Of a stretch of 27,371 bases of DNA, positions 1 through 17,333 are shown one piece after another. A program made the translations under genes and the position numbers. The notes under the pieces are model-generated. The model searched no databases, was not told the DNA's origin, and saw nothing but the letters and a program-made list of their open reading frames with translations. How positions within the stretch are numbered: position 1 is the first letter of the stretch; every line of letters begins with the position of its first letter. This DNA is from a virus (taxonomy: Duplodnaviria > Heunggongvirae > Uroviricota > Caudoviricetes): the IMG/VR virus record IMGVR_UViG_2617270978_000023; one strand, written 5' to 3'.

Positions 1-2397
1 ATGAAGGCTGAAATCAGCCGTAGAAGTCTGATGAAAACCTCCGCACTTGGCAGTCTTGCGCTGGCAAGCAGTGCTTTCACTCTGCCATTTTCCCAAATGG
101 TCCGGGCGGCAGAGGCTCCGGTAGAAGAGAAAGCGGTCTGGAGTTCCTGCACCGTTAACTGCGGGAGCCGCTGTCTGTTACGTTTGCATGTGAAAGATGA
201 CACCGTGTACTGGGTGGAGTCTGATACGACAGGTGACGACGTCTACGGTAATCATCAGGTTCGAGCGTGTTTACGCGGGCGCTCTATCCGCCGACGGATG
301 AATCATCCTGATAGGTTGAAATATCCCATGAAGCGCGTCGGCAAGCGCGGTGAAGGTAAATTTGAACGGATAAGTTGGGACGAAGCCCTGGATACCATCA
401 GTGATAATCTTCGGCGGATCCTGAAAGATTACGGCAATGAGGCTGTACATGTCCTGTACGGAACAGGCGTAGATGGCGGAAACATCACCAACTCAAACGT
501 CCCGTACCGTCTGATGAACTCTTGCGGTGGTTTTCTCAGTCGCTATGGCAGCTACAGTACCGCACAGATCAGTGCCGCAATGAGTTATATGTTCGGTGCC
601 AATGATGGCAACAGCCCGGATGATATCGCCAATACGAAACTGGTCGTTATGTTCGGAAATAACCCGGCAGAAACGCGGATGAGCGGCGGTGGTGTCACTT
701 ACTACGTCGAGCAAGCCCGCGAACGTTCAAACGCACGCATGATCGTCATCGATCCACGTTATAACGACACTGCTGCCGGGCGTGAAGATGAATGGCTGCC
801 CATTCGCCCTGGCACCGATGGCGCACTGGCCTGTGCGATTGCCTGGGTACTGATTACTGAAAACATGGTCGATCAGCCATTTCTCGACAAATATTGTGTT
901 GGTTACGATGAAAAAACGCTGCCCGCCAACGCACCACGTAACGCGCATTATAAAGCCTATATTCTGGGCGAAGGGCCTGACGGCATAGCTAAAACGCCGG
1001 AATGGGCAGCAAAAATCACCAGCATCCCGGCAGAAAAAATTATCCAGTTGGCACGAGAGATCGGTTCAGCAAAACCTGCTTATATTTGTCAGGGTTGGGG
1101 GCCACAACGACATTCCAACGGCGAGCAAACATCCCGCGCTATTGCCATGCTTTCCGTTCTCACCGGCAACGTCGGCATAAACGGCGGCAACTCAGGCGTA
1201 CGCGAAGGTAGCTGGGATCTGGGGGTAGAATGGTTCCCGATGCTCGAGAATCCTGTTAAAACGCAGATTTCCGTCTTTACATGGACAGATGCCATCGACC
1301 ATGGTACGGAAATGACCGCGACCCGTGATGGTGTTCGTGGAAAAGAAAAACTGGATGTCCCCATCAAGTTTTTATGGTGCTACGCCAGTAACACATTGAT
1401 CAATCAACATGGCGACATCAATCACACCCATGAGGTGCTTCAGGATGACAGCAAGTGCGAGATGATTGTTGGCATTGACCACTTCATGACGGCCTCGGCT
1501 AAGTATTGCGATATCCTGTTGCCCGACCTGATGCCAACAGAGCAAGAAGACCTTATCTCTCATGAATCTGCAGGGAATATGGGCTATGTGATCCTCGCCC
1601 AACCCGCAACCTCAGCAAAATTTGAACGCAAACCCATCTACTGGATGCTGAGTGAAGTCGCCAAACGCTTAGGACCAGACGTTTATCAAACCTTTACTGA
1701 AGGTCGCAGTCAGCATGAATGGATCAAATATCTCCATGCGAAAACGAAGGAACGTAACCCTGAGATGCCCGACTACGAGGAGATGAAAACGACCGGGATC
1801 TTTAAGAAAAAATGCCCGGAAGAACACTACGTCGCTTTCCGCGCATTCCGTGAAGATCCACAGGCAAACCCGTTGAAAACACCTTCGGGGAAAATCGAAA
1901 TTTATTCTGAACGACTGGCGAAGATTGCAGATACCTGGGAATTGAAAAAAGATGAAATTATTCATCCCCTTCCTGCGTATACCCCAGGTTTTGATGGCTG
2001 GGACGATCCCCTGCGGAAAACCTATCCACTGCAGTTAACGGGCTTCCATTACAAAGCGCGTACCCACTCCAGCTACGGCAATATTGATGTGTTACAGCAG
2101 GCCTGCCCACAAGAGGTGTGGATCAACCCCATTGATGCTCAGGCACGCGGTATCCGTCATGGCGATACCGTGCGGGTATTTAACAATAATGGAGAAATGC
2201 TGATTGCCGCAAAAGTGACTCCGCGTATTCTGCCTGGCGTTACCGCCATCGGGCAAGGTGCGTGGCTTAAAGCGGATATGTTTGGTGACCGGGTCGATCA
2301 CGGCGGCAGTATCAATATTCTGACCTCTCACCGCCCTTCACCGCTGGCAAAGGGAAACCCGTCGCACAGCAATCTTGTCCAGATCGAAAAGGTTTAA
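1..2397 (+). CDS. ynfF: DMSO reductase family molybdopterin oxidoreductase catalytic subunit (putative selenate/DMSO reductase); probably 5'-truncated by the window edge
   Basis: 798-aa ORF with a twin-arginine signal (SRRSLMK) and the Cys cluster CTVNCGSRC typical of the N-terminal Fe-S site of DmsA-type enzymes. It is followed 10 nt downstream by a dmsB/ynfG-type start with its own RBS. The native start probably lies a few codons upstream of position 1. Confidence 0.85.
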   Translation: MKAEISRRSLMKTSALGSLALASSAFTLPFSQMVRAAEAPVEEKAVWSSCTVNCGSRCLLRLHVKDDTVYWVESDTTGDDVYGNHQVRACLRGRSIRRRMNHPDRLKYPMKRVGKRGEGKFERISWDEALDTISDNLRRILKDYGNEAVHVLYGTGVDGGNITNSNVPYRLMNSCGGFLSRYGSYSTAQISAAMSYMFGANDGNSPDDIANTKLVVMFGNNPAETRMSGGGVTYYVEQARERSNARMIVIDPRYNDTAAGREDEWLPIRPGTDGALACAIAWVLITENMVDQPFLDKYCVGYDEKTLPANAPRNAHYKAYILGEGPDGIAKTPEWAAKITSIPAEKIIQLAREIGSAKPAYICQGWGPQRHSNGEQTSRAIAMLSVLTGNVGINGGNSGVREGSWDLGVEWFPMLENPVKTQISVFTWTDAIDHGTEMTATRDGVRGKEKLDVPIKFLWCYASNTLINQHGDINHTHEVLQDDSKCEMIVGIDHFMTASAKYCDILLPDLMPTEQEDLISHESAGNMGYVILAQPATSAKFERKPIYWMLSEVAKRLGPDVYQTFTEGRSQHEWIKYLHAKTKERNPEMPDYEEMKTTGIFKKKCPEEHYVAFRAFREDPQANPLKTPSGKIEIYSERLAKIADTWELKKDEIIHPLPAYTPGFDGWDDPLRKTYPLQLTGFHYKARTHSSYGNIDVLQQACPQEVWINPIDAQARGIRHGDTVRVFNNNGEMLIAAKVTPRILPGVTAIGQGAWLKADMFGDRVDHGGSINILTSHRPSPLAKGNPSHSNLVQIEKV

Positions 2398-2936: not shown

Positions 2937-3221
2937 ATGACCAGTCAACTCATCCCCGTATTCAACGGTTCTATCTCAAACCAAGCAGCCCTTCTATGCA
3001 ATGCTCGCAATCTACACGCTTTCCTTGGGGTTGGTAAACGCTTTGCATCGTGGATAACAGAACGTATTGCTGAATATGGTTTCGTTGAAAATCAGGACTA
3101 TATGATTGCTTCCCAAATTCGGGAAGCAAAAGGTAGAGGCGGTCACAACCGCAAGGAATACCACCTCACCCTCGACACAGCCAAAGAGCTTGCGATGGTT
3201 GACGACTGCGTCCAATACTGA
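2937..3221 (+). CDS. AntA-domain antirepressor-like protein, short paralog (94 aa)
   Basis: Strong RBS aaggaggtcatcATG. The N-terminus MTSQLIPVFNGSIS...NARNLHAFLGVGKRFASWITERIAEYGFVENQDY fits the AntA/AntB antirepressor N-terminal signature. It shares leader and N-terminus with the downstream paralog. Confidence 0.6.
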   Translation: MTSQLIPVFNGSISNQAALLCNARNLHAFLGVGKRFASWITERIAEYGFVENQDYMIASQIREAKGRGGHNRKEYHLTLDTAKELAMVDDCVQY

Positions 3222-3421
3222 CTATACTCCGCGCCGAGGCCTCGAAAACCTCCCAAAAGCGGATTAAACCAACCCCGTCAGTGTTGGATTTTTTATGCCT
3301 GTTATTCAGTGATAGCACAGTGTGCGGTCACATCCCCGATCAATGTCGGGAGGGCGACGAATACAACACCCGCAAGGGGAATAAGTCCGCGGTATCTTTT
3401 GGGCCGTTTCGAGCCTCCCGG

Positions 3422-3438
3422 CACCACATCTTGTGGTG
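3422..3438 (+). promoter_or_regulatory. Inverted repeat CACCACA-tct-TGTGGTG in the leader of the second antirepressor gene
   Basis: Read directly; about 32 nt upstream of the ATG at 3471. Confidence 0.35.
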
Positions 3439-3470
3439 GCATTTCTCGAAAAAAGCCAAAGGAGGTCATC

Positions 3471-4100
3471 ATGACCACTCAACTCATCCCTGTGTTTGAA
3501 GGTACAATCTCAAATGAACCTACGCTTCTGGTGAACGCGCGTGATTTGCATGGATTTTTAGAGGTAGGTAAAGATTTTTCTAACTGGATACGGGCCAGGC
3601 TAAACGAGTATGGATTCGTAGAAAATTTAGACTACATTCTATTTTCGCCAAATTTGGCGAAAACTCCAGGCCGCCGCCGCAAGGATTACCACCTCACCCT
3701 CGACACAGCCAAAGAGCTTGCGATGGTTGAACGTAACGAAAAAGGTCGCCAGATCCGCCGCTACTTCATCGAGTGCGAAAAGAAACTTCGCAACATTCAG
3801 CCAGTACAAGCAGAACCACAGCCGCAATTCACAGCCGAGGAAATCATCCTCCTTTGCTACATGCAGCTCTGGATGGAAAAAGCCCAGGACCTTAGCAAGC
3901 AGCTGTACCCCATAATGAAAGAGCTGAACTCCTCATACACGAACAAGCTGTATGACATTGCGTTTGAGACTATCTACATGGTGACGAAGAACAGAGATGT
4001 GCTACTGAGAGAGGCGGCACGGCTTGACCAGTCGAGTTTCGTAGTTCAGCGGGCCAGACCAATGCTGAAAAGCCTGCGGGCAAGACAATTTGAATTCTGA
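3471..4100 (+). CDS. Phage antirepressor with N-terminal AntA/AntB domain (209 aa)
   Basis: Same RBS as the first paralog (aaggaggtcatcATG). The product starts MTTQLIPVFEGTIS, parallel to the paralog. The six-frame ORF extends to 3309, but the internal ATG with the RBS is preferred. Confidence 0.7.
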   Translation: MTTQLIPVFEGTISNEPTLLVNARDLHGFLEVGKDFSNWIRARLNEYGFVENLDYILFSPNLAKTPGRRRKDYHLTLDTAKELAMVERNEKGRQIRRYFIECEKKLRNIQPVQAEPQPQFTAEEIILLCYMQLWMEKAQDLSKQLYPIMKELNSSYTNKLYDIAFETIYMVTKNRDVLLREAARLDQSSFVVQRARPMLKSLRARQFEF

Positions 4101-4296: not shown

Positions 4297-5523
4297 ATGC
4301 CGGTAACTATAACAAAAATCAGAACTGGAGAAGATGTTTTGTCAGCAGCCATTCACCGCATTGAATGGTTGTTTGAAACATTCTCTTCTGTATGTTTATC
4401 TTTTTCTGGCGGTAAAGATTCCACTGTACTTTTCCATCTTGTAGCCGAAGTGGCCTACAGGAAGAAACGTCGTTTTTCTGTATTGTTCATTGACTGGGAA
4501 GCCCAGTATCAATGCACCATTGATCATATACAGAAGATGCGGATGATGTACCAAGATGTAACAGATACCTTTTACTGGGTTGCACTTCCCCTGACGACAG
4601 TAAATGGTGTCTCGCAGTTTCAGCCTGAGTGGATATGCTGGGAGCCCGGTGTAGAGTGGGTTCGACAGCCACCGGAAGATGCTATTACTGATATGGCGTA
4701 TTTCCCCTTTTACCGCTACGCCATGACTTTTGAAGAATTTGTCCCAGCTTTTTCTTCCTGGTTCGCAAGTAACCAATGTAGCGTGGCAATACTGACTGGA
4801 GTCCGCGCGGATGAATCTCTTAACAGATTTATGGGACTGGTTTCCCAACGAAAACTGAGATATGCAGATGATAAACCCTGGACCACGGCGTCACCTGAAG
4901 GTTTTTACTACACCATGTATCCGCTGTATGACTGGAAAACCAACGATATCTGGGTATATAACGCTAAAACCTGTGCAATCTACAATCCTCTGTATGATTT
5001 GATGTACCGTGCAGGCATTCCTCTACGTAATATGCGTGTCTGTGAGCCTTTTGGCCCGGAACAGCGTAAGGGACTATGGCTTTATCATGTTCTGGAGCCA
5101 GAAACTTGGGCACGGATGTGTGAACGAGTATCTGGTGCTGCCAGTGGGGCTCTTTATGCCAATGAAAGCGGGGCCTATTTTGCCCTGCGTAAACGGATGT
5201 CAAAACCATCCCATCATACCTGGCGCAGCTATGCGTTCTTCCTGCTGGACGTAATGCCGGAAAGAACGGCTGAACACTACCGCAACAAGATAGCAGTTTA
5301 CCTGCGCTGGTATCAGAACCGGGGATTCCCGGATGATATCCCGGATGAACAGGAAAATGATCTGGGCTGCCGGGATGTTCCCTCCTGGCGACGTATTTGT
5401 AAGACTCTCATAAAGAATGATTTCTGGTGCCGAACGCTCTCCTTCAGCCCCAACAAACCCCGGCACTATGAACGTTACCTGCAGCGTATGAATGAAAGGA
5501 GGAAGGAATGGGGAATTCTGTGA
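4297..5523 (+). CDS. ibrA: PP-loop ATPase / PAPS-reductase-like (DndC-like) protein, IbrA-like (408 aa)
   Basis: PP-loop motif SFSGGKDS near the N-terminus. Length and pairing with a ParB-like gene match the recalled ibrA/ibrB pair. The start has no strong SD, so its position is uncertain. Confidence 0.65.
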   Translation: MPVTITKIRTGEDVLSAAIHRIEWLFETFSSVCLSFSGGKDSTVLFHLVAEVAYRKKRRFSVLFIDWEAQYQCTIDHIQKMRMMYQDVTDTFYWVALPLTTVNGVSQFQPEWICWEPGVEWVRQPPEDAITDMAYFPFYRYAMTFEEFVPAFSSWFASNQCSVAILTGVRADESLNRFMGLVSQRKLRYADDKPWTTASPEGFYYTMYPLYDWKTNDIWVYNAKTCAIYNPLYDLMYRAGIPLRNMRVCEPFGPEQRKGLWLYHVLEPETWARMCERVSGAASGALYANESGAYFALRKRMSKPSHHTWRSYAFFLLDVMPERTAEHYRNKIAVYLRWYQNRGFPDDIPDEQENDLGCRDVPSWRRICKTLIKNDFWCRTLSFSPNKPRHYERYLQRMNERRKEWGIL

Positions 5524-6152
5524 CACCAGAGGTGGAGGTGCTGAGCAAGATGATTCGACAGTACTTCAGTCAGGAACAATCTGAAGAGAAAACCATACAG
5601 GCCCTGAACCATCTCCGCTGCGTACTCCATGAGATCAGCCCCTTTGCTCAAGAACCAGTGGACTGTGTGCTGTGGGTAAAAGCGGATGAAATTGTCGCTA
5701 ACGATTATAATCCCAATGTCATGGCCCCAAGCGAAAAAAAATTACTGAAACAATCTCTGGAAAAAGACGGTTTTACTCAACCAATTGTTGTTTCGGAAAA
5801 AACAAGCCATTACCTGGTGGTGGATGGTTTTCATAGGCAGTTACTAGGTAGAAGAACAGTTACTGGAAAACGCCTGAAAGGCTGGCTACCAGTAACCTGT
5901 ATTAATCCAGACCGAAAGGGACAAACCTCACGTATTGCCGCGACTATCCGACATAACAGAGCCAGGGGGAAACACCAGATAACCTCAATGTCTGATATTG
6001 TCAGAGATCTTTCACGTCTTGGCTGGACTGATGAACGTATCGGAACAGAACTGGGGATGGACCAGGATGAAGTTCTGAGGTTAAAGCAGATTAGCGGGCT
6101 AACGGAGTTATTTCAGCAGGCAGATTTCAGCCCTGCATGGACTGTTACATAA
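5508..6152 (+). CDS. ibrB: ParB/sulfiredoxin-like nuclease-domain protein, IbrB-like (214 aa)
   Basis: ParB N-terminal-type motif VVDGFHRQ. The start overlaps the ibrA stop by 16 nt, with RBS aggagga upstream, suggesting translational coupling. Confidence 0.65.
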   Translation: MGNSVTPEVEVLSKMIRQYFSQEQSEEKTIQALNHLRCVLHEISPFAQEPVDCVLWVKADEIVANDYNPNVMAPSEKKLLKQSLEKDGFTQPIVVSEKTSHYLVVDGFHRQLLGRRTVTGKRLKGWLPVTCINPDRKGQTSRIAATIRHNRARGKHQITSMSDIVRDLSRLGWTDERIGTELGMDQDEVLRLKQISGLTELFQQADFSPAWTVT

Positions 6153-6240: not shown

Positions 6241-6765
6241 CTACCTCAGATCACCTAATAATATATCAAGATTATTTTGCGCATTAATGCTATTCGCCAT
6301 TACTGTTGCTGCTTCTGGCAACTTTCCAAGAGCAATAAATATATTCTTAAGGCTGATTGGAATTGATGAACCATGCGGATCGCGCCACTCACCGCAAATT
6401 CTGTGAGTTTCATCACAAAGCCTGAACGCATCCCAACCTCCATATTGACCAAAAATTATGTCCATTGACTCTATTTCTGCGGGCGATAACTCCCCCAGCT
6501 CATCAACAGAAGAAAATGTACGCCACATTTCAACCTTATGATCCGCTACATCAGATATCCATGATTCCCACGGACTGTACTCGTTTTCACTTCCATCCTT
6601 AACCAAAGAATATGTCTGCGATAAAACGGGTCCTTTGTTCATAGAGAAATAATGATCACCACTAATGGGAAAACCATACAACTCCATTGCTTTGCGGTCA
6701 GAGAGATACATCAGCTTAATGAAACGCATAGATCCGCCATGTTTTTTCAGCAAATACGCTGCCAT
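6241..6765 (-). CDS. DUF4065 / Panacea-domain-like protein (SocA/GepA-type; candidate antitoxin) (174 aa)
   Basis: The N-terminal pattern IKLMYLSDRKAMELYGFPISGDHYFSMNKGPVLSQTY resembles the recalled DUF4065 signature (LKLQKLLYY...G.P....GPV..Y). It sits 150 nt downstream of the giant ORF on the same strand. Confidence 0.45.
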   Translation of the reverse strand: MAAYLLKKHGGSMRFIKLMYLSDRKAMELYGFPISGDHYFSMNKGPVLSQTYSLVKDGSENEYSPWESWISDVADHKVEMWRTFSSVDELGELSPAEIESMDIIFGQYGGWDAFRLCDETHRICGEWRDPHGSSIPISLKNIFIALGKLPEAATVMANSINAQNNLDILLGDLR

Positions 6766-6915: not shown

Positions 6916-9900
6916 TTAATCCACTCCCACTTTTTTGTTGTACTCGCGGTTAAAGCGATCCACGGCAACCTTCATATCCCGCTCTACCGATTTCACCATC
7001 GCCGCCTGCTGCGCCAGACTGAGAGAACTGTCGGCATAAATGGCATCGCGCTGTTTGCGCAAATCCTTCAGTCTCTTCCGGGTATCCTGCATAAGCCCGT
7101 TCATCAACAATTTTCCGTTGTTCTCGTCAATGAACGCCGTTCTTTCTGCACCGGTCAGACTCTTCAGCTCTGCGTGATACTGCGCAACCTCTGTCATCCG
7201 GTCGTACATCTTCTGCTGGTCTGCATACGGCATCACCTCACCCGAAATTTTCCCCAGGAAGGGCACCTGCTGCTCCGGTATATCAATACCGTTCAGCGAT
7301 TTCACCGCCGCATCTGTGGTTTTGGAAATGAAGCGCCCTGTCCCTCCGGAGATATAGTCAATCCAGAATTTCAGCGATTCCGGTGTGATATCCACCGCGC
7401 CGGGACGATACTGGCTGCCACCTGAGAACGCATTCAGCCAGGATGCAAACGCCTTGTACGCCTCAGGCGTTGAACGTCTGCCCAGTTGGCTGTCCGGTTT
7501 CGGTGTGCCAAATGGCATGTTCTCCTGGTAAATCTGCGCCCCCATGAAGTTTTCATTCATGGCAAGGTTCGCAAACGGACGCAGAATGGTCGGCGCTGCA
7601 TTTTTCAGCAATGCCCCGGACAGTGTTTCCGACGTTTCACTGCCCACAGGACTGAATGCCCCCAGGATACCACCGACAACATTACCGGCAGCACGTGAAG
7701 CAGTCAGGTCGCCCGCTGCCACACCTTCAGCAGTATGCCCGAGCAGGAAGAAAACGTTGTACCCGTAAGGCAGAGGAATACTCCAGTACTCTCCGGCCTT
7801 GCCCCCGAACACCGATTTCATAATGACGAGGTTACGCTCTTTCACATGAGACGGCACCTTGTCATACCAGTTAACCCCGTCATCATCCTCCCCCGCAACA
7901 CTGCGGTTAAGCGAGCCAAGCAGATAACCCGCTCCCACAGCTGCAAGCGCGATTTTCTGCGGTACATTGAGATTCTTCCAGCGAAGGCGCTCCGGTAACG
8001 GCCCGTCGCCATTAAGATGTCCGAGCGTTCTCACCAGGTTTGCGGTCCCCTGAATGCTGGCGTTGGCAAACATATACAGCGAGTTCATCAGCGCTCCCTG
8101 CTCACCACGACGGTTAAAGTTCACCGTCATGTTTTTGGCAAGAGATGCCGCCTGCTGGCGTGACAAACCGGCATCACGGGCGTGTTTATAGGCAGAAAGA
8201 CGCAGAGCGTTTTCAACCGCGCCGTTGGCATCCTCGACCAGGTTCAGGAACGAATGCCATGCACCGATACTCTGGCCTTTCCATCCTCCCTTCGCCAGCG
8301 ATACAAGGCGATCCATTTCCTTCTGCTGGCCTTCAAGGTCACCCATGTTAAACCAGCCGGTTTTACCTCCATCCTCAACAAACTCTTTCCACACCTTCTG
8401 CCACTGCGCACCGTTGCCCGTGAGGGTTTTACCACGCAGACTGGCGTATACGGCAGACATGGCAGACCGGCTGTCTTTCACCACAGCCAGGGCGGATAAG
8501 TTATCCAGCACTTTCAGTTTACCGTCGCTCCTTCCCTGCTCAGCCTTCAGGTTCATCACCGCCGTCTGCACGTCACGGATGAAGTTACTGACCAGAAATT
8601 CCGGGTTATACGACGTGTTCACCGTTGCCAGGAAACGGTTAACTTTCCCCAGCGTACGGATTACGGCGTTACTGGTTTCCGGCCCCATGTTCTTCATCGC
8701 ACGCATCAGGCGCGGGTCATGGAGTTTGATGTAGTAAGTTTTGCCGTCCTTTTTGGTGGTGAAGTAGCGATCCGCCATCATTGCCATAGGCACCGGACGT
8801 TCAACAACTTCGCGACGGGTTTCGCCGGTTTCCGGATCAACACGCTCTGCAATCGCCCGCATGGTGTCCGGTTTGTCATCAGTGAATACCTGCCAGTAAT
8901 CCTTATCGGGATTATCCTGCACCAGTTTCAGGAAGGCGTTACCCACTTCGTTTTTGCGATTGCGGATCAGCGATTCGCTCAAATCCTGTATCGCCTGAGT
9001 GGAAGGAGACTGTGCGCGGGATGCACGCCCCATGGCCTGCCTGCTTTCACGTCCGCCGATGGTGAAGCCCTTACCTGTACGGGGCAGTGACACCACACCG
9101 TCAACATCCTGACCTTTCAGGGGAACGTAGTAACGGTAGGCGTTCTGCCAGGCATCCACCACACCGCTCTCTTCCAGTCCGGCCTCACGGATAAGCTCAC
9201 GGCGACGGGCCAGCATATCGTCAACAATCCCTGCCAGACGGTCATACTGTGCCTGTTTGCCACTGTTACGCACACGCTGCATGATTTCCGCCGCTTCCGC
9301 GTTGGTCATCCCCGAACCGCCGTCCGGCATTTTCGGGTTGATTTTCGCGATATGCGCGTTACGTTCCGGCGCGTGACGGGCGTAGAGGTACTCATCCAGA
9401 TCGGCCTGCGCAATTTTGTAGTCCGCCAGTAATTTAGCCAGTGGCTGAACGTAGCGCTCCTTCATCACGTTCAGGTCGTTTTCCGCCTTCCCGTGGAAGA
9501 GTTCTTCCGCCATATAAGCGTTGTTACTGTCGTCTATTTTTCCGCCAGTTTTACGGATATTCTCCTGAACAGCTTTCAGCACCTGGAATTTATCCTGCAT
9601 CTGGCGCACAAAACGCGATGCAATTGTCTCTTCCGGTGTCAGACTGCTGGTACGGGAGTAATACGGCCCCTTGCGAATATCTTCAGGATAGAGTATTTTA
9701 TCTACAGAGCCGCGATAAGAACGCTCCTCTTTGGGCAATTGGAGCCCACTGTACTGAGGGTTATCGCGGCTTAATTTCTCCTTCCGGTAAAGCGTTAATC
9801 CAGCCATTTCCATACTTTTCAGCTTTTTCCCGTTTTCCGTACCGTAAACAGATGCCACCTTGTTAATTTCCAGACGTTTATCTGTCGCCTTCATATGCAC

Positions 9901-12900
9901 TGCCGAGACGACCGGATCACCATTTTTATCCACAGCATCAAGCAGCATCACAACCGCATTTCTTTCTGTCGCGGAACGGTAAATTGCATCCGGATTGTGC
10001 ATCAGTTCCGGAAGTCTCTCGATAACATCCATTGGCACCACATGTTTCACGCCATTGGTAGCCTTCCGCACAGTGTCGCGGGAGATAACCAGCGGCAAAT
10101 CTGGTGCGCCAAGGTGGCGCAATACCGGCGGCGTACGCCCGATGTTTGCAGTCATTGCACCAGAACGTAACGACTTCATCATTCTGGCAAGGTCATCACG
10201 ATAACGCTCGCCCTCACCTTCCGGCACTTTGAACGGATCAGGCTTACCGCTACGGGAGTACTGAGACGATGCGCCAGCGCCATCCTCACGCGGCGTGTAA
10301 CCTTCCCGCACACGCTGGCCTAACGTGCGAATAGTTTCGCGAACAAGTCTGATATCGTTCAGCTCTGTCGGCTTCAGTAACCCCGTGCGACGCAGTACCC
10401 CTTTGACCAGGGCAACAACACGCTCCCACGCCGCCACAAATTTATTCGGCTGTTTCTCCGCCATATGTGCCAGAAATTCACCTGCCTGCACTTCCGGTGA
10501 TTCCTTACCATAAGACGCATCAACCTTACGCCAGGCGTCACGGATGGTGGCGTTATCACTGTCACGGGTTTTCAGTACGGTCTTAATAATCGTCTGATAT
10601 TCCGCTGGCGTGACTACATGCTCCATTGCATGGTGGATAATCTCGTGACGCAGCTTCTCGCGAACGGTCCGCCCGTCAGGAATGTTATCCGCCACCAGGA
10701 CAATTTCACGTTTATCCGGACGATAGAACGCATGCACCCTGCCGTAACCGTCGAACGATTCCCCCGCCAGCGCTTCAGCCTCTTTCTGTGACTTCACCAC
10801 GCGGACCTTCAGGTCACTGTCCTTAATGCCACTCATCACGCCACGGGCAACCGCTTCAACCTGCGGGACCGGGCTGCCTTTGGCTTCCGCACTGCGGTTA
10901 ACATCCGAAATGAGATTGCCTTCAGGTGTGCGGGTCACGCCCTTACGGGAATAAAACGCAACGCCCTTGTCCGTCTTACGGGTTTTCAGCGTACTGAACA
11001 GGTGATCGAATGCATCACGAATACCGCCATCCAGTTCCGCATTCGTCGGATAAGCCCAGGTGTTATCTGTGTTGTGCTCAGGTGCCTTACGGATATTGAC
11101 CAGATAATCATTCTCCACGCCAGCCGTACGCGCTTTATCCTGAACATAACGCTCAAAGGCACGCGCCGCCATTTCAACATCCGTTGACCAGTACGGTTTT
11201 GAGCGCACCTCATCGAGAAGCGCTGAACGACGCGGCATGTCACTGCTGTTGATCGCTTTCATCACGCCTTTAAACGCGTCGTAAACCTCCTGACGTACCG
11301 GATATTCCGCATAAACATATCTGCCGTCTTTAAATACGCGCCCGGCACGCTGTGCTTCCGTCATATAGTCGCCACCTGACGTGATCTTCCCGTCAGTGGA
11401 AACATCATAACGACCAAAATAATTATCCAGTGAATGGAACCATTCGTGGGCCAGCGCCCCCGGTCCGTTACCTTTTGTCAGGTTGATTGCCACCTCACCC
11501 GGCTCATAGTGTGCCGCCGCCTTACCCTTACCACGGGCACCAAAAGCAAGCCCAAGACGACCGTTCAGAGAAAGCGCTTTTGTCGGCACGTTCAGCACAT
11601 CAGCCAGGTCATGCAGCGAGTCATAAGCCCGGTTCAAATCAGCCTGACGACGCGGACCTTCCACATAATTACCAAACTGCACACCACGAAAACCAAACGC
11701 ATCGCTGAACTGCTTCGGTGAGACATCACCCTTGCGGCGTTCTGGCCCGGTACGATCGCGGTTGGTGGCGTTACGCTGCTCCTCACGGGAAATCTCACGC
11801 ATCTCCTTCACATGACGAACAAGCTCATCACGATGTGAATCAATGTACTTACGCGCATCACTGGCTGACTTAAAGCCACCTCTCACCCGCATTTTGTTTT
11901 TGCCGTAAGCAATAAAAATATCGCCACTGCGGGTATTCCGGTATACGTCAAAGCTGATTTTGTCATCCGGTGACGGTGCTGTTTTTTCATCACCTTTCGC
12001 CTGTGATTTTTCCTCCTGCTCTGCAAACCAGGCTTTTGCCTTTGTCAGTAATTCATCCCTGCTTTCCGAGAAAAAGAGATTGCTCCCCTTATTGTCCTTA
12101 TTGCGCAGTGAATAAAGTTTCCGTGGCGGATCGTAACGTTTCCCTCCTGCCGCCTGATACACACCGGATACCACCCGATAAGCAGAAGCCTTGTCTATCT
12201 GCGAGGGTGGCAGCGTGCGTAACAGTTGCCATGTGTCCGCGTAACGGGCGGGCATTCTGCCTTCCATCCACTCAGCAAGCCGTCCGGCAGTCACTTTTCC
12301 TTCCAGCATTCCCGCCACACTTGTGCGGATGCTCTTTACACTCTCCACCCACTTCACTGCATTGAGTTTCGTCTTCGCCGGAATATCGCTACGATACAGC
12401 GCTATCATTGCCAGGGTATCAGCATCGGCACCTTCGTTCGCCAGTTTTGCGTAGTCCGGTTTCGGGAACACTTTGCTCAGCGGCTGCGTGAAATAATCCC
12501 TGTCTTCCAGCGTTTTACCCAGTGTTTCGGCAAGCTGTGCATAACGGTGTTTTGCCGCGCCCTTAATCTCCTCGCCAAAGTCTTCAATTTTTGCACCACG
12601 CGCCTGCTGGTGAGTGCTCGGTTTATCTACCGGCACCGGCACCTCAGTATCCGGAACATCGGTTATGGTCTGGCGATTATCCCCGGTCTGTCTGCGTGCT
12701 TCTGCCTGCTGTGCCAGTTCCGGAAGGGAGTCACGAACCATACGAGGGAGTGATTCAGGATGTGGCATATCAACCCCACGCTGTTCAGGTGCAGGAAGTC
12801 CTTCACGCACTGGTGCTGTGGCGTTCTGCTCATCCGGTGACGGCAGACCACGACGAACCGGTTCGCTCTCCAGTATTTCCCCCTGGCGACCAGCGGCATT

Positions 12901-15279
12901 TTCCGGTGCCTGCGCACGTCCTTTCTGGAAACTCTGGCCCTTCACCTCACCGGTTGTGGTAAAACGACCACCACGTCCGGCCTGATTTTCATCCGGCGTA
13001 CGCGCCACTTCTCCTGGTAACGGATATCCCTGTCCGGGATGAATATCGCCGGGAGCGGGAAGGCGTGGACGCTCAGTTAACTCCTGTGCTGTCGGACCGG
13101 CATCACCTTCAGCCATCTGTGAACGTACAAGCTCCTCTGCCGTCGGCGCGTTGCCACGGGCAAGGCGGGCCTGCACTTCTGTATCATCCCCCGTGAAACC
13201 ACGGAATCGCGGGTCACGCATGAACGCGGGCTGCTCCATCGGTTCAGCATCAGCAATACGCTCTCCGTCAGCCAGGGTGTTAATGGTCTCCGTTGCCACA
13301 TCTTCAGAGAACGCAGGATTATCCATTTCAACGGCATACTGATTCTCGCCTTTCTTCACTACGGACGGTTTCAGGCCGGTGGCGCTGGCATTGCGGAAAA
13401 CGTCGCTCCCCAGAGCACTTTTTTCATCCGTGAAATAACGGTTGTCCGGACGCACCTTTTCAATGCGTTCTGCTGGTCTGGACGCACCACTCCCGTTAAT
13501 TTCAATACGAACTTCATCCGGATCGCGGAACCGCACCGTCGGGTAAATACTCCCGTCGCCATCATCCGCATTTTCCGGCTGTGGCTGTGCCTCCGGTCTG
13601 GCCTCCTGCTGAGGGCGAAGCACATCACGGATAGCCTGTAACTGCTGCTCTTCAGTATCAGTACGCCCTTCCTTCAGGCTGAGTTTTCGGTATTCCTCAA
13701 GCAGTTCAGGGCGCGGCTTCGCCTTCAGCTCATCCATCACCGCCTGTCGCTTCGCCTGTTCATCCAGTTCATTTAACAGCTGGCTGGCGGCTTCCCGGCG
13801 ATGAACGGCAGACGTGTCTCCCTCAGGTGCCATATCCGCATCAGCATACTGTTCCAGAAGTTGCTCGCGATTCATGCCCTGCATGGATTCGCGATGCTGT
13901 GCCACCGGATCAGCCGGTTCGGGTTGCGGGGCTGCTTCACCCTGCTGTACGACTTCAGCCTCACGCATGGCGGTTTCTTCTGCGGCCTGACGTTTTCCAC
14001 GATATCCGGCAACCGCACCGAACGGTGCGCCCATCGCAGCACCAAGGGCTGCACCTTCGATCGTTGCGTCAGCCACGCCCTCCCACGGTGACACATCCAT
14101 TCCGGCGGTCTCACGCAATGCCGTGTTTTCCTGATAGCGTGAATAGCCACCCTGCGCCGCATTAATCGTCCCCTGTTCCGTGGCATTTCTGACAATGCCG
14201 CTTTTAACGGTCTTCGCCGTGCCCCGCATCGCCAGATTAAACAACTGAGCATCGCCCAGTTTTGCCGCCATGGCATTCACAGCCAGCAATTCAGGATCGG
14301 TTGCCAGCTGCGCGCGCACCTCATCGGCAACACGCTCTTTTGCCAGATCCATTTTCTGGCGATCAGTAAGCTGTGCGTGCTGCGGATCTGCATCAATTGA
14401 CAAAAACGTCTGCTGAAATTTCGGGGACTTCGCCAGCTCAGAGTAATCCGCGTTAAGAACAGAGTCTGCTGCTGCCATTGCACTCTGCCCCTGTGCGCTG
14501 GCTGAGGAATGGGTGATCAGGCCTGCCTGGAATAAATCCGGCATTTTTTTATCGACAGCTTCTGCTGCCAGTGCGGTAGCTCTTTCCGGCTGCATCCCTG
14601 CCGCAATGTATTTTTTCTCCAGCCCGGCGGTCAGCACTTTTCGCAGAGTGACTTCACCCAGCTTTTTAGTCACACCGCCTGCAACCATATCCGGTACAAG
14701 CGCACCAATCAGGTTTACGCCCTTCGCCACCCAGACCGCAGAATCATCATATCCTTCAGTCATCGGTGTATTCAGCGCCCGCTGCGCCCCCGGCGACATC
14801 TTGCCAGTCAGCCATTCATCCGAGGCTTTAGCGCCGCCACTGACTGCCTTGCCTGTGACCTTCAGACCTTTACCGACAGTATCAGTAACCGCATTTTTTC
14901 CATCAGGCAGAGTGTCGATGACCTCATCCGCCCCCTTGCTGCCACCGACAAAAATATCCTGAACAGTTGCGACTCCCGGCAGCCCCATACGGCTGAACTC
15001 ATTTAAAATACGCGCTCCTGTTTTTACCGGGCTCTGAATCATCGCATCACCGAGTCCACGGGCCATTTCCCCTGCCCCCCGGACGGACTGGGCGACACCT
15101 TTCCCCATAGTTGGCAATACATCGCCCAGGCTGAACGACGTGCTGTTGTCCTTCCAGCGATTGGGATCGGAGAAAAACGCATCATAGCTGTCAGTCTCGC
15201 CCGGCTGCTGAATGTTCAGGCTGTTGCGGTTCTGGTTGCCAAATTGCGCTTCAGGGCGCTGTTCATCGGAATAAGCCAT
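6916..15279 (-). CDS. Giant 2787-aa phage protein with two HExxH zinc-peptidase-like motifs; candidate polyvalent or injected virion protein
   Basis: Uninterrupted 8.4-kb ORF. Contains HEWFH at 11434-11448 (about aa 1278) and HEIIHHAMEH at 10618-10647 (about aa 1545). The N-terminal 430 aa are Gly/Ala-rich; about aa 430-860 are Pro/Gln/Glu-rich low complexity. Antisense ORFs across it are short. Confidence 0.85.
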   Translation of the reverse strand: MAYSDEQRPEAQFGNQNRNSLNIQQPGETDSYDAFFSDPNRWKDNSTSFSLGDVLPTMGKGVAQSVRGAGEMARGLGDAMIQSPVKTGARILNEFSRMGLPGVATVQDIFVGGSKGADEVIDTLPDGKNAVTDTVGKGLKVTGKAVSGGAKASDEWLTGKMSPGAQRALNTPMTEGYDDSAVWVAKGVNLIGALVPDMVAGGVTKKLGEVTLRKVLTAGLEKKYIAAGMQPERATALAAEAVDKKMPDLFQAGLITHSSASAQGQSAMAAADSVLNADYSELAKSPKFQQTFLSIDADPQHAQLTDRQKMDLAKERVADEVRAQLATDPELLAVNAMAAKLGDAQLFNLAMRGTAKTVKSGIVRNATEQGTINAAQGGYSRYQENTALRETAGMDVSPWEGVADATIEGAALGAAMGAPFGAVAGYRGKRQAAEETAMREAEVVQQGEAAPQPEPADPVAQHRESMQGMNREQLLEQYADADMAPEGDTSAVHRREAASQLLNELDEQAKRQAVMDELKAKPRPELLEEYRKLSLKEGRTDTEEQQLQAIRDVLRPQQEARPEAQPQPENADDGDGSIYPTVRFRDPDEVRIEINGSGASRPAERIEKVRPDNRYFTDEKSALGSDVFRNASATGLKPSVVKKGENQYAVEMDNPAFSEDVATETINTLADGERIADAEPMEQPAFMRDPRFRGFTGDDTEVQARLARGNAPTAEELVRSQMAEGDAGPTAQELTERPRLPAPGDIHPGQGYPLPGEVARTPDENQAGRGGRFTTTGEVKGQSFQKGRAQAPENAAGRQGEILESEPVRRGLPSPDEQNATAPVREGLPAPEQRGVDMPHPESLPRMVRDSLPELAQQAEARRQTGDNRQTITDVPDTEVPVPVDKPSTHQQARGAKIEDFGEEIKGAAKHRYAQLAETLGKTLEDRDYFTQPLSKVFPKPDYAKLANEGADADTLAMIALYRSDIPAKTKLNAVKWVESVKSIRTSVAGMLEGKVTAGRLAEWMEGRMPARYADTWQLLRTLPPSQIDKASAYRVVSGVYQAAGGKRYDPPRKLYSLRNKDNKGSNLFFSESRDELLTKAKAWFAEQEEKSQAKGDEKTAPSPDDKISFDVYRNTRSGDIFIAYGKNKMRVRGGFKSASDARKYIDSHRDELVRHVKEMREISREEQRNATNRDRTGPERRKGDVSPKQFSDAFGFRGVQFGNYVEGPRRQADLNRAYDSLHDLADVLNVPTKALSLNGRLGLAFGARGKGKAAAHYEPGEVAINLTKGNGPGALAHEWFHSLDNYFGRYDVSTDGKITSGGDYMTEAQRAGRVFKDGRYVYAEYPVRQEVYDAFKGVMKAINSSDMPRRSALLDEVRSKPYWSTDVEMAARAFERYVQDKARTAGVENDYLVNIRKAPEHNTDNTWAYPTNAELDGGIRDAFDHLFSTLKTRKTDKGVAFYSRKGVTRTPEGNLISDVNRSAEAKGSPVPQVEAVARGVMSGIKDSDLKVRVVKSQKEAEALAGESFDGYGRVHAFYRPDKREIVLVADNIPDGRTVREKLRHEIIHHAMEHVVTPAEYQTIIKTVLKTRDSDNATIRDAWRKVDASYGKESPEVQAGEFLAHMAEKQPNKFVAAWERVVALVKGVLRRTGLLKPTELNDIRLVRETIRTLGQRVREGYTPREDGAGASSQYSRSGKPDPFKVPEGEGERYRDDLARMMKSLRSGAMTANIGRTPPVLRHLGAPDLPLVISRDTVRKATNGVKHVVPMDVIERLPELMHNPDAIYRSATERNAVVMLLDAVDKNGDPVVSAVHMKATDKRLEINKVASVYGTENGKKLKSMEMAGLTLYRKEKLSRDNPQYSGLQLPKEERSYRGSVDKILYPEDIRKGPYYSRTSSLTPEETIASRFVRQMQDKFQVLKAVQENIRKTGGKIDDSNNAYMAEELFHGKAENDLNVMKERYVQPLAKLLADYKIAQADLDEYLYARHAPERNAHIAKINPKMPDGGSGMTNAEAAEIMQRVRNSGKQAQYDRLAGIVDDMLARRRELIREAGLEESGVVDAWQNAYRYYVPLKGQDVDGVVSLPRTGKGFTIGGRESRQAMGRASRAQSPSTQAIQDLSESLIRNRKNEVGNAFLKLVQDNPDKDYWQVFTDDKPDTMRAIAERVDPETGETRREVVERPVPMAMMADRYFTTKKDGKTYYIKLHDPRLMRAMKNMGPETSNAVIRTLGKVNRFLATVNTSYNPEFLVSNFIRDVQTAVMNLKAEQGRSDGKLKVLDNLSALAVVKDSRSAMSAVYASLRGKTLTGNGAQWQKVWKEFVEDGGKTGWFNMGDLEGQQKEMDRLVSLAKGGWKGQSIGAWHSFLNLVEDANGAVENALRLSAYKHARDAGLSRQQAASLAKNMTVNFNRRGEQGALMNSLYMFANASIQGTANLVRTLGHLNGDGPLPERLRWKNLNVPQKIALAAVGAGYLLGSLNRSVAGEDDDGVNWYDKVPSHVKERNLVIMKSVFGGKAGEYWSIPLPYGYNVFFLLGHTAEGVAAGDLTASRAAGNVVGGILGAFSPVGSETSETLSGALLKNAAPTILRPFANLAMNENFMGAQIYQENMPFGTPKPDSQLGRRSTPEAYKAFASWLNAFSGGSQYRPGAVDITPESLKFWIDYISGGTGRFISKTTDAAVKSLNGIDIPEQQVPFLGKISGEVMPYADQQKMYDRMTEVAQYHAELKSLTGAERTAFIDENNGKLLMNGLMQDTRKRLKDLRKQRDAIYADSSLSLAQQAAMVKSVERDMKVAVDRFNREYNKKVGVD

Positions 15280-15290
15280 ACAGACTCCAT

Positions 15291-15315
15291 AAAAAAACCC
15301 GGCACAATGACCGGG
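15291..15315 (-). terminator. Intrinsic terminator-like hairpin immediately upstream of the giant ORF start
   Basis: Minus-strand reading: stem CCCGGTCATTGTGCCGGG then TTTTTTT, then ggag and the ATG at 15279. Confidence 0.55.
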
Positions 15316-15347: not shown

Positions 15348-16613
15348 TTACTGCGCGTAATTCTGTTTCAGACCACGGATAAACTCAGATGCAGAGGCCG
15401 CACTATCATCTCTGGCCTGTTCCCCCCTGGCCTTTTGAATACGGAGAAAATTCGCATACCCGTTCTCCAGCAATTTCTGATTCTGAGGCTCCAGCATTTC
15501 TGGCTGACGGGAAGCAACTTCTCTGGCGAATGCCTGCTTATCCGGATCATCACCCGCCCAACTGGTAATCCCTTGTTGAATTTTTTGCTGCTGAATTTGC
15601 TGCTGATACTGCGGCAGTCCCATCGAAGCATAATATTGCGTCACTGCTCCCTGCGCATCACCGCCGTCCTGTGCAACCTTTATCGCTACCTGGCTGGCTC
15701 CTTTCTGAAGTTGATCCGCAGAAAGTCCCTGCTGCTTCGGCGTGAAATAGCCGAAATTTTTCGAAATTTCCGCGAATTTACTGCGATCCCTGACAAGCTC
15801 AACAGCCTTATCAACAGGCACCGCCAGCACGGTTTGATCATCAGGATGTGCACTGCCGTATTCCGTAACGGGTTTATGTGCTGTAGAGCCATCACTGTAT
15901 GTGAGATCAAGGCCGATAAGTATGTACCCTTCCTGCTGTGCCGGTACTATACTGCCAATCCTGGCCTCTTTTATCGTCTTTTTCCCGGTTGAATCGGGCA
16001 TGCCAATACGCTGTTGCAGTTCCGGGCCAAACACCCCGGAAAGGACATCAAGATTCTCCGGCGTATTAAGTGAAGCGATAGCCCTGTCCGGCTTGTCATC
16101 AAAGATTTTTTGCAGGTTGTTCACGGCCTGACCCGCTTTCGCTACATAGCCATCATTCGCCATCAGCCTCAGCGGATTACCCTCTGACAACTGGCCGTAA
16201 AGACGCATTGCTGCATCCCGATCGCCAGCATCCACAGCCTTTCCAAGCGCCGCCATCACAGGCTGATCGCGCGCCAGCATATCGTTATACTCAAGCCGTC
16301 GCTGGTTGTATTTCTGCATCCGGAGTCGCTGCTGCTCCATACCCAGCGACGCATTCCGGTAATTCTGGTTGGCGTTAAACTCCCTTTCCTGCAGTGCATA
16401 ATTACGGTCGTCGACTTTGGCTCTGTAATCAAAGTTCCGCTGATCAACGTCTTTATTATGTTCAAACTGCGACTGTGCAAATTCAAAATCGCGCTCGTTA
16501 TTTTTCTGTTGTTGAGCAAGCTGTGCTTCTCGCAAACCAAGTTCCTTACGACGGGTCATTGCCTGGTCAACCGTGCTGAATCCGGCAAGTAAACCCTGTG
16601 CAAATCCGCTCAT
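15348..16613 (-). CDS. Hypothetical phage protein (421 aa), Gln-rich with coiled-coil character
   Basis: Long ORF tightly packed with its neighbours on the same strand; no recognisable motif. Confidence 0.6.
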   Translation of the reverse strand: MSGFAQGLLAGFSTVDQAMTRRKELGLREAQLAQQQKNNERDFEFAQSQFEHNKDVDQRNFDYRAKVDDRNYALQEREFNANQNYRNASLGMEQQRLRMQKYNQRRLEYNDMLARDQPVMAALGKAVDAGDRDAAMRLYGQLSEGNPLRLMANDGYVAKAGQAVNNLQKIFDDKPDRAIASLNTPENLDVLSGVFGPELQQRIGMPDSTGKKTIKEARIGSIVPAQQEGYILIGLDLTYSDGSTAHKPVTEYGSAHPDDQTVLAVPVDKAVELVRDRSKFAEISKNFGYFTPKQQGLSADQLQKGASQVAIKVAQDGGDAQGAVTQYYASMGLPQYQQQIQQQKIQQGITSWAGDDPDKQAFAREVASRQPEMLEPQNQKLLENGYANFLRIQKARGEQARDDSAASASEFIRGLKQNYAQ

Positions 16614-16623
16614 TCACCACTCC

Positions 16624-16875
16624 TTAAAACAAAGAACCAGCAATACCACCTATGACAGCACCAATAGCCGCACCGGGGAGACCACCAACAGCAGCGCCCA
16701 TAGCTGCACCCGTACCAATTCCCGTGCCGATATTCTGTTTGTTCTGCGCTTTCTGTTGCGCCGCCATCTGTTTGTTCGCGGCCTCAATTTCTTCACGTCG
16801 TCTGTCGGCATCACTTATTCCCTGTAATGCCTCACGCCGCGACTGATTCGCAATATCCAGTAAACCGTATCCCAT
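16624..16875 (-). CDS. Small glycine-zipper membrane protein (83 aa)
   Basis: C-terminal GTGIGTGAAMGAAVGGLPGAAIGAVIGGIAGSLF is a GxxxG-rich hydrophobic segment; the start is 11 nt after the upstream gene. Confidence 0.55.
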   Translation of the reverse strand: MGYGLLDIANQSRREALQGISDADRRREEIEAANKQMAAQQKAQNKQNIGTGIGTGAAMGAAVGGLPGAAIGAVIGGIAGSLF

Positions 16876-16884
16876 ATTGCCCCC

Positions 16885-17331
16885 TTACGCTGACACCAGT
16901 TTTCCGCCAACACTCAGTTGTTGTCTTGCAGGTGCAGAAGCCCCCGTCAGTATGTTCATCTGGCGATCCTGCTCTGCTTCACGGATACCATTTTTCGCGC
17001 CAGCAATTGCCAGAGCATTACGCAAACCCAGTGTGTTACTGTTGGGATTATCCGGGCGGCTTACCCCGTATCTCGCCATCTGGTTATCCTGCGCCATCTG
17101 CGCTGTACGGAGACTGGAAGTGGCAAGGCCGCCCACCCGGGCAAGCTGTGCATTCATCAGGCTGTTGTTCTCACCAAGGTCAGCCAGCCTTGCCACGCGG
17201 GGCAAATATCTGGTTCGCCAGTCGTCGTATTGCTGGCGTGTCAGCGCGGCGGATGTCTGCCAGTCCCCCTGTGGGCGGGCTGCGCCTGAATAACCAGCCC
17301 TTGCGAGAGTTTCGTATTTGCCATACTCCAT
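16885..17331 (-). CDS. Hypothetical phage protein (148 aa)
   Basis: ORF in a tightly packed same-strand gene series. Confidence 0.5.
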   Translation of the reverse strand: MEYGKYETLARAGYSGAARPQGDWQTSAALTRQQYDDWRTRYLPRVARLADLGENNSLMNAQLARVGGLATSSLRTAQMAQDNQMARYGVSRPDNPNSNTLGLRNALAIAGAKNGIREAEQDRQMNILTGASAPARQQLSVGGKLVSA

Positions 17332-17333
17332 AA

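Follow-up and report, generated by a model that had tools for sequence, protein, structure and literature searches.

The subject of this analysis is a single open reading frame (ORF) of 2787 codons in a 27,371-nucleotide stretch of tailed-phage DNA (Caudoviricetes; IMG/VR record IMGVR_UViG_2617270978_000023; the whole stretch is called the window). It runs without interruption on the minus strand between positions 6916 and 15279 and takes up 30.6% of the window, in line with the original prediction, which described a single 2787-aa ORF filling almost a third of the DNA. That description was correct in the ORF, its motifs and its composition, and left unstated only the strand, which is minus. 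By homology, the ORF can be identified as the gene for the known giant internal virion protein of short-tailed (933W-like, Sepvirinae) Shiga toxin (Stx)-type prophages. Its parts are as follows.

6916..15279, minus strand: giant ORF, 2787 aa, an allele of 933W L0134, Sp5 ORF80 (ECs1242) and phi24B gp47
15277..15315, minus strand: translation start region, with a hairpin and a run of seven T (15315-15291), GGAG (15288-15285) and ATG (15279-15277)
13990..15279, minus strand: conserved N-terminal module, residues 1-430, Gly/Ala-rich; ~150-430 conserved in distant giants and Vibrio phage K249
12592..13989, minus strand: disorder-prone Pro/Gln/Glu-rich linker, residues 431-896, judged by composition proxies
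11698..12591, minus strand: start of cargo module 1, residues 897-1194, with DFGxxIxGA at residue 900, a conserved stretch and LPD5 (1045-1194)
10990..11718, minus strand: predicted zincin-like metallopeptidase domain 1 (zincin-1), residues ~1188-1430, with HEWFH; LPD1 forms its C-terminal helices
10240..10890, minus strand: predicted zincin-like metallopeptidase domain 2 (zincin-2), residues ~1464-1680, with HEIIH (10633-10647), E1601 (10477-10479) and E1608 (10456-10458); no Pfam model
9775..10050, minus strand: MuF_C domain, residues 1744-1835 (PF18819, E=3.3e-18, profile positions 8-99 of 103)
6919..9657, minus strand: conserved C-terminal module, residues 1875-2787, with LPD38 at 2470-2675 (window 7255-7872) and a moderately hydrophobic segment at 2439-2461

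Identity and distribution of the giant gene

By Megablast, 186 phage records, defined as those carrying at least 80% of the ORF, contain the gene at 92-97% DNA identity along 97% or more of its length. They all belong to short-tailed phages of the Stx type whose hosts are E. coli or Shigella, among them 933W, VT2-Sakai (Sp5), Stx2-converting phage 86, PA28 and TL-2011c. The gene is also present in 426 of 5426 complete E. coli genomes (~8%), in up to three copies per genome; the closest complete-genome match is at 98.8%. PHROG 616 covers the protein from end to end. The statement that it could not be assigned to a named family is therefore superseded: it belongs to PHROG 616 and corresponds to 933W L0134, Sp5 ORF80 and phi24B gp47. 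These phages carry Shiga toxin genes from one E. coli to another, and the giant gene makes up ~14% of their ~60-kb genome.

The 933W copy, L0134 (NP_049532, 'LPD5 domain-containing protein'), lies downstream of tail genes and near attR. L0134, Sp5 ORF80 (2793 aa) and phi24B gp47 (2811 aa) are the same gene as the one described here, matching it in length, in neighbors and in a position at the prophage end by the tail genes. Compared with L0134 in blocks of 100 residues, the protein is 68-83% identical within residues 801-1000 and 84-99% identical elsewhere, the greatest divergence and the small insertions and deletions (832-891) falling in the linker. The present allele further differs from those of 933W, Sp5 and phi24B in that it comes from a prophage inserted in ynfG, with no stx gene within the window.

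The ORF could be an artefact of sequencing or assembly frameshifts that fused several genes, and a few older GenBank records do annotate several small ORFs in its place (e.g., 'hypothetical protein (x19)' in AP005154). However, it is unbroken in the 186 phage records and in 423 complete E. coli genomes, RefSeq annotates single coding sequences of about 2800 aa, homologous giants of 2400-3200 aa are present in Vibrio phages, and the peptides of the phi24B orthologue come mainly from the first-listed gel-slice samples. A frameshifted fusion, the first hazard to which the original prediction had pointed, is ruled out by the intact phage and genome copies, the single RefSeq coding sequences and the gel-slice peptides; its likelihood is negligible.

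The start codon, read from the sequence, is the ATG at 15279-15277, with a GGAG Shine-Dalgarno sequence 6 nt upstream (15288-15285). The longer start given to 933W in RefSeq, 13 codons upstream, is ATA in the window and lies inside a hairpin. This terminator-like hairpin (CCCGG-N8-CCGGG followed by seven T; 15291-15315, minus strand) is situated between the stop codon of a 421-aa gene and the Shine-Dalgarno sequence of the giant gene.

Virion location and essentiality of the orthologues

The phi24B orthologue gp47 was reported to contain LPD5, LPD1, LPD38 and a 'Muf-C metallopeptidase'. It is abundant in virions and is not seen in the cryo-electron microscopy (cryo-EM) map, and a capsid-packaged ejection protein was proposed, the peptidase of which degrades peptidoglycan (preprint 2026, doi 10.64898/2026.04.10.717836). 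The proteome table of the same preprint (doi 10.64898/2026.04.10.717836) gives gp47 10,962 peptide-spectrum matches, second to the major capsid protein alone. Most of these are in the first-listed gel-slice samples, taken as the high-mass end, with a smear further down. The earlier suggestion that the giant protein is possibly packaged thus agrees with an orthologue that ranks second among the virion proteins by spectrum count and is absent from the cryo-EM map; its injection is presumed.

Deletion of the Sp5 orthologue, ORF80 (ECs1242), yields DNA-filled, normal-looking heads and neither plaques nor lysogens (Mondal et al. 2016, PMC5155283). ORF80 was termed a tail-formation gene in that study, where a match to the AAA+ family COG1483 is also mentioned (Mondal et al. 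2016, PMC5155283). On this basis the giant protein could be a tail-assembly factor, possibly an AAA+ ATPase, that acts in morphogenesis and is not delivered. The DNA-filled mutant heads that bind no anti-tail-fiber antibody, the COG1483 match and the location of the gene downstream of the tail genes all favor such a role. On the other side, the 2787 residues contain no Walker A motif ([AG]xxxxGK[ST]), and Pfam, NCBIfam and PHROGs give no ATPase family; with neither a P-loop nor an ATPase family, an AAA+ ATPase is rejected. Furthermore, the phi24B orthologue is very abundant in purified virions yet absent from the resolved tail and capsid, which is unexpected for an assembly factor. The mutant phenotype does not separate the two views because a packaged protein could still serve stable tail attachment. 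Taken together, a factor confined to tail assembly is unlikely.

Two zincin-like domains and an RNase-like domain

Four Pfam domains are recognized in the protein: LPD5 (1045-1194), LPD1 (1355-1434), MuF_C (1744-1835) and LPD38 (2470-2675). All were defined from the polyvalent proteins of phages and conjugative elements (Iyer et al. 2017), which bears out the idea of a multi-domain polyvalent protein. Iyer et al. 2017 defined the polyvalent proteins together with the LPD, MuF-C/PBECR and zincin-like metallopeptidase (MPTase) domains, and suggested that, once delivered, the polyprotein is processed by the MPTases. A phmmer search of the whole protein against the PDB sequences gave no match.

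The two separate HExxH signatures that had been claimed are present, HEWFH at residues 1278-1282 (window 11434-11448) and HEIIH at 1545-1549, the latter within HEIIHHAMEH (1545-1554; window 10618-10647). The protein has 36 His, and its shuffles (n=5000) contain on average 0.029 HExxH, with two or more in 0.08%. Neither motif lies under any Pfam model, and a Pfam scan at E<=10 of the isolated HExxH segments, the N-terminal module, the part preceding LPD5 and pieces of the C-terminal module gave nothing usable, the best match of the HExxH segments being Peptidase_M76 at E=0.2.

Among the homologues of residues 1188-1446 are many free-standing proteins, ~335 aa long and annotated as LPD5+LPD1. 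In 71 aligned sequences (24-63% identity), H1257, E1259, H1278, E1279, W1280, H1282, D1285, E1369 and E1376 are 97-100% conserved. Within the motif the values are 99% for H1278, 100% for E1279 and 99% for H1282; E1369 (11173-11175) and E1376 (11152-11154), the candidate third ligands, both stand at 97%. An AlphaFold2 model of residues 1041-1440 (predicted local distance difference test, pLDDT, 87.5; predicted template modeling score, pTM, 0.80) has a helix, a three-stranded sheet, the HExxH helix, an insert and a helix with the two Glu (model positions 327-345, residues 1367-1385). The NCBIfam family CLCA_X matches exactly residues 1176-1431, below its cut-off. The model supports a zincin fold for zincin-1, with predicted metallopeptidase-like activity. 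In the modeled structure, the end of LPD5, the gap without a Pfam model and LPD1 make up one zincin-like domain (window 10978-12147) that the Pfam boundaries split. LPD1 is its C-terminal helical part and holds the conserved Glu that is presumed to be the third ligand.

For zincin-2, an earlier word-indexed homologue search yielded close fragments alone, and an exhaustive search of cluster representatives was needed. With residues 1440-1738, HMMER then found 417 representatives at E<=1e-3, mostly of 1500-6000 aa. Among 143 of them (25-77% identity), H1545 is conserved in 99%, E1546 in 100%, H1549 in 100%, G1551 in 90%, E1601 in 100% and E1608 in 92%. The HExxH residues, E1601 and E1608 are also invariant in A4, and some relatives have two copies of the domain. 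As for the HEIIHHAMEH signature of the original prediction, the HEIIH half is conserved in these 143 representatives and the HAMEH half is not, H1550 and H1554 varying. The HExxH+E arrangement is that of gluzincins, and a zincin fold is predicted from the pattern. Searched against the PDB sequences, the zincin-2 profile gave chance helical matches only, and there was no curated family match. The two domains are not shown to be duplicates of each other; hhalign of zincin-2 with zincin-1 gave E=0.015 with an alignment limited to the strand and the HExxH helix.

Thus both motifs stand at positions conserved among homologues and are followed by a conserved Glu, and the first domain models as a zincin fold, so the label 'metallopeptidase-like' was well chosen. 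The HExxH domains might still be inactive relics in a purely structural protein, such as an internal scaffold, a ballast for DNA pressure or a tube-forming protein. No enzymology exists, the PBECR domain of phage Mu MuF was predicted by Iyer et al. to be inactive, so that degeneration of such domains is possible, and the non-enzymatic end modules are the parts most conserved across phages. Against this, the ligand and catalytic residues are 97-100% conserved down to ~25% identity and their neighbors vary, a pattern typical of active enzymes. Relic domains are improbable because of this conservation, and the two conserved zincin peptidases are probably active.

MuF_C belongs to the PBECR family, with an RNase-type fold (Iyer et al. 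2017). The MuF_C domain of the giant protein is accordingly assigned to PBECR by its profile match and predicted to have an RNase fold and not to be a metallopeptidase. The 'metallopeptidase' label given to MuF-C in the phi24B preprint is mistaken, since MuF-C is PBECR with an RNase-type fold. The MuF_C-bearing homologues retrieved were close enterobacterial relatives alone and are uninformative on conservation.

The HExxH domains resemble protein endopeptidases, namely lethal factor, the Pro-Pro endopeptidases (M34), MtfA (M90) and thermolysin. From lethal factor, M34 and MtfA, zincin-1 differs in that the identity is just 11-14%, that no Pfam or MEROPS-type family is matched, and that LPD5 precedes it on the N-terminal side and a large insert separates the two helices. 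All three phage contigs examined have their stand-alone LPD5+zincin-1 gene among small early-type genes, outside the structural module. The aligned N-termini of the stand-alone proteins have no obvious signal peptide. The early-gene context and the lack of an obvious signal peptide therefore favor an intracellular (cytoplasmic) target for LPD5+zincin-1.

These points bear on the function that the phi24B study assigned to the peptidase. Podovirus ejection proteins with wall-degrading domains exist, T7 gp16 being an example. Some relatives of the C-terminal module carry a lytic transglycosylase (LT_GEWL), so that wall-degrading cargo does occur on the same chassis. Both observations favor the proposal of the phi24B preprint (doi 10.64898/2026.04.10.717836), in which an ejection protein digests peptidoglycan with its metallopeptidase so that a trans-periplasmic conduit reaches the inner membrane. 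However, the preprint puts the peptidase in MuF-C, which has an RNase-type PBECR fold, and the HExxH domains are like MtfA, lethal factor, Pro-Pro endopeptidases and thermolysin, not like the LAS/M23/M15 wall peptidases. The cytoplasmic target suggested by the early-type gene runs and by the absence of an obvious signal peptide also speaks against it. The giant protein has no lysozyme or transglycosylase match in Pfam, including isolated segments at E<=10; the lytic transglycosylase domain of T7 gp16-type ejection proteins was not found. Digestion of peptidoglycan by the giant protein is thus rather doubtful.

Conserved ends and exchangeable cargo

The first 430 residues contain 19-33% Gly+Ala, as expected from the claim of a Gly/Ala-rich N-terminal region. 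Moderately hydrophobic segments are found at 181-199 and 407-425 (Gly-zipper-like) and, in the C-terminal module, at 2439-2461 (Kyte-Doolittle 1.2-1.4), and a Pfam scan of isolated segments gave a weak Gly-zipper match in the N-terminal module (E=0.017). PHROG 2206, 'virion RNA polymerase', is colinear with the N-terminal part (E=2.7e-4). A membrane- or ejectosome-anchoring domain is proposed for this module.

Residues of about 421-896 (window 12592-14016) consist of 19-33% Pro/Gln/Glu per 100 aa, lie throughout on the disordered side of the charge-hydropathy plot and have the highest TOP-IDP scores. This plot is a crude proxy that flags also regions that model as folded, and the disorder of the linker is judged from composition proxies alone. 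The Pro/Gln/Glu-rich segment had been placed at 12700-13990; its composition holds, and so do its limits, within ~100 nt at the lower end. The linker is not all featureless spacer, however, because a block at ~683-808 (window 12855-13232) is conserved in distant homologues, with 37-46% identity in the distant giants P0129 and P0136. Judging by this conservation, the block may be a short functional element, e.g., a binding or cleavage region.

In the C-terminal module, LPD38 (PF18857, E=3.4e-48) is merely the core of a larger unit of ~900 aa. The AlphaFold2 model of this module (pLDDT 86.1, pTM 0.84) is mostly helical with a small beta subdomain. Foldseek searches of BFVD show that many phage giants end in the same fold, with template modeling (TM) scores of 0.6-0.88 over ~900 columns; the relatives include giants annotated with LT_GEWL, RelA/SpoT and type I methylase. 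No structural relative of the module was found in the PDB. The 245 homologues over the C-terminal 913 aa have ART-PolyVal, methyltransferase, LPD3 or other N-terminal parts, or consist of ~900-1000 aa alone. One stand-alone module, of 981 aa in Amphritea, is in a prophage remnant (by int/xis/YqaJ) and is probably a truncated copy and uninformative.

By BLASTP, the blocks conserved in distant giants or K249 are ~150-430, 683-808, 897-1045, 1447-1690 and 1880-2785. In the 2502-aa protein of Vibrio phage K249, the shared parts are limited to the N-terminal module (29% identity), zincin-2 (32%) and the last 914 residues (41%); LPD5/zincin-1 and MuF_C are absent from it. Relatives keep the N- and C-terminal modules and swap the domains in the middle. 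The giant of Vibrio phage D274 (3162 aa; L003:2692-12180) has ExoX-C, an SF2 helicase and a methyltransferase (DarB-like) as cargo and the same LPD38 end. It plainly illustrates how cargo is exchanged on one and the same frame.

Proposed model for packaging and delivery

The reading preferred here, with a probability of roughly 0.6, is that the giant protein belongs to the polyvalent class, is carried in the capsid and is ejected together with the DNA into the cell, and that its chassis function is essential for infectious particles. The delivery chassis would consist of the N-terminal module (1-430) and the mostly helical ~900-aa C-terminal module (1875-2787), and the disorder-prone linker of ~470 residues would give a beads-on-a-string layout. 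The exchangeable cargo in the middle would be LPD5 with zincin-1, zincin-2 and the PBECR/MuF-C RNase-like domain. Delivery may proceed in four steps: i) the protein would be expressed late and incorporated into the head, as virion mass spectrometry shows for the orthologues; ii) once the needle detaches, it would exit through the tail with the four proteins encoded directly upstream; iii) by analogy with N4 gp50, the N-terminal module would stay on the envelope or ejectosome and the cargo would pass to the cytoplasm; and iv) the zincins, as predicted from catalytic residues and fold, would cut the polyprotein into working units and/or cut host proteins, and the RNase-like domain would act on RNA. 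Ejection, membrane association of the N-terminal module, self-processing, the substrates and RNase activity are the presumptive parts of this scheme.

Several observations weigh against this reading. The Sp5 ORF80 mutant particles are not labeled by anti-tail-fiber antibody (Mondal et al. 2016, PMC5155283), which a part in attaching the tail would explain no less well than a purely internal cargo role; an internal protein needed for stable tail attachment may account for it. No experiment on the giant protein or its orthologues demonstrates that they are ejected, processed by proteolysis, bind metal or act as an RNase, and the phi24B gel data contain no discrete gp47 fragments, so that processing in the virion is not evident. 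The N-terminal link to the N4 virion RNA polymerase (vRNAP) is the single PHROG 2206 match, BLASTP giving nothing. With just the three moderately hydrophobic segments described above, transmembrane helices were rejected and membrane insertion is not claimable.

A bolder extension of the packaged-and-ejected reading can be put forward tentatively. The N- and C-terminal modules might be a general phage chassis that helps to build a trans-envelope ejection device and carries freely exchangeable effectors. The effectors of Stx phages would be an RNase and two zincin proteases that process themselves, and other phages would use one of these, LPD5+zincin-1, as an early gene on its own. In that case, LPD1 and a portion of LPD5 would be pieces of a single unrecognized peptidase family aimed at a host or defense protein.

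Relation to other giant phage proteins

The giant protein is like the polyvalent proteins of Iyer et al. 2017 in having unrelated domains on one polypeptide, zincin-like hub domains, PBECR/MuF-C and LPD domains including the phage-only LPD38. It is also like them in a late or virion gene context, here downstream of tail genes. The text of Iyer et al. 2017 does not mention 933W, and neither zincin described here is under a Pfam model.

The vRNAP of N4, gp50 (3500 aa), is likewise a giant packaged in a podovirus capsid and, as phi24B gp47, invisible in reconstructions. An HExxH peptidase domain was predicted in gp50 (Iyer et al.), and gp50 is encoded just after the genes of smaller ejection proteins (gp51, gp52). 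It is thought to traverse the 35-Å tail channel in a beads-on-a-string form, and the giant protein with its ~470-residue linker has the same layout. In contrast to gp50, the giant protein lacks an RNA polymerase domain, and the vRNAP Pfam domains seen in gp50 are all missing from it. BLASTP gives no significant similarity, gp50 lacks LPD38, and the C-termini are not similar. The zincin-2 profile aligned to N4 residues 2050-2550 by hhalign gave a weak match (E=0.0027, probability 11%) over the strand and the HExxH helix alone. Homology to N4 vRNAP was rejected on these three grounds, i.e., no significant BLASTP similarity, no LPD38 in gp50 and a weak hhalign match, and N4 is kept as a functional analogy. 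The best reading is that the giant protein works like N4 vRNAP and is not its homologue.

P1 DarB and the 'DarB-like' giants (PHROG 10089) are capsid-delivered members of the polyvalent class, and PHROG 10089 matches the N-terminal (350-489) and C-terminal (2348-2675) modules of the giant protein. Unlike DarB, the giant protein has no helicase or methyltransferase, and its cargo is two peptidase-like domains and one RNase-like domain. Anti-restriction by DNA methylation does not apply, because the giant protein contains no helicase or methyltransferase.

The gene, its essentiality, its presence in the virion, the Pfam domains and the idea of a packaged and ejected polyvalent protein are already published. 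The present analysis adds that: i) the two HExxH motifs each form the conserved core of a peptidase-like domain missed by current Pfam models, LPD1 being part of the first domain; ii) MuF-C is, by its family, RNase-like and not a peptidase; iii) the architecture has conserved ends and an exchangeable middle, with a ~900-aa C-terminal fold that has no solved relative; and iv) the genes upstream look like an ejection cassette. Though incremental, these additions give useful leads on a phage group of medical importance. They provide targets for mutation, namely E1279, E1546 and the N- and C-terminal modules, which bear on how a 300-kDa protein is packed, passes a narrow tail and takes over or disarms the host. 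The exchangeable-cargo layout could also serve protein delivery with phage particles.

Neighboring genes

The giant gene lies at the end of the tail/late region of a 933W-type prophage. Directly upstream of it are the following genes.

15348..17990, minus strand: four genes of 218, 148, 83 and 421 aa; phi24B orthologues present in virions

Their orthologues in phi24B, gp51, gp50, an 86-aa protein and gp48, are contained in virions (doi 10.64898/2026.04.10.717836). There, the 86-aa 'bacteriocin homologue' was treated as a contaminant and gp48 was labeled 'transcription factor?' (doi 10.64898/2026.04.10.717836). The 421-aa gene corresponds to the essential ORF79 of Sp5 (Mondal et al. 2016, PMC5155283). 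K249 has the same order of gene sizes ahead of its giant gene. PHROGs and Pfam give no function for the four genes beyond a Gly-zipper in the 83-aa product. The layout resembles the podovirus ejection cassettes gp52-gp51-gp50 of N4 and gp14-15-16 of T7 (the latter in PMC8605104), and the four genes with the giant gene probably constitute an ejection-protein cassette.

Between the giant gene and the prophage end are a SocA/Panacea-domain gene (6241-6765, minus strand) and a phosphoadenosine phosphosulfate (PAPS)-reductase/DUF3440 gene with an overlapping IbrB-like gene (4297-6152, plus strand), an IbrA/IbrB-type pair. A PAPS reductase also directly follows the giant gene in Vibrio phage K249. 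Two AntA/AntB-type antirepressor ORFs are located at 2937-4100 (plus strand); the first, of 94 aa, is fragment-like, and its equivalent in the closest genome is flagged as a partial pseudogene. The junction with the host is at the beginning of the window (1-2397 and 2397-2937). A molybdopterin oxidoreductase is encoded at 1-2397, and its gene in the closest genome is ynfF; the prophage in that genome is lodged in a truncated ynfG, the remnant of a 4Fe-4S protein.

The G+C content drops to 0.385 at 19001-20000 and to 0.346 at 25001-26000, against about 0.52 elsewhere in the late region. The dip at 19001-20000 overlaps a Lom-family outer-membrane gene (18913-19650), which is consistent with a moron.

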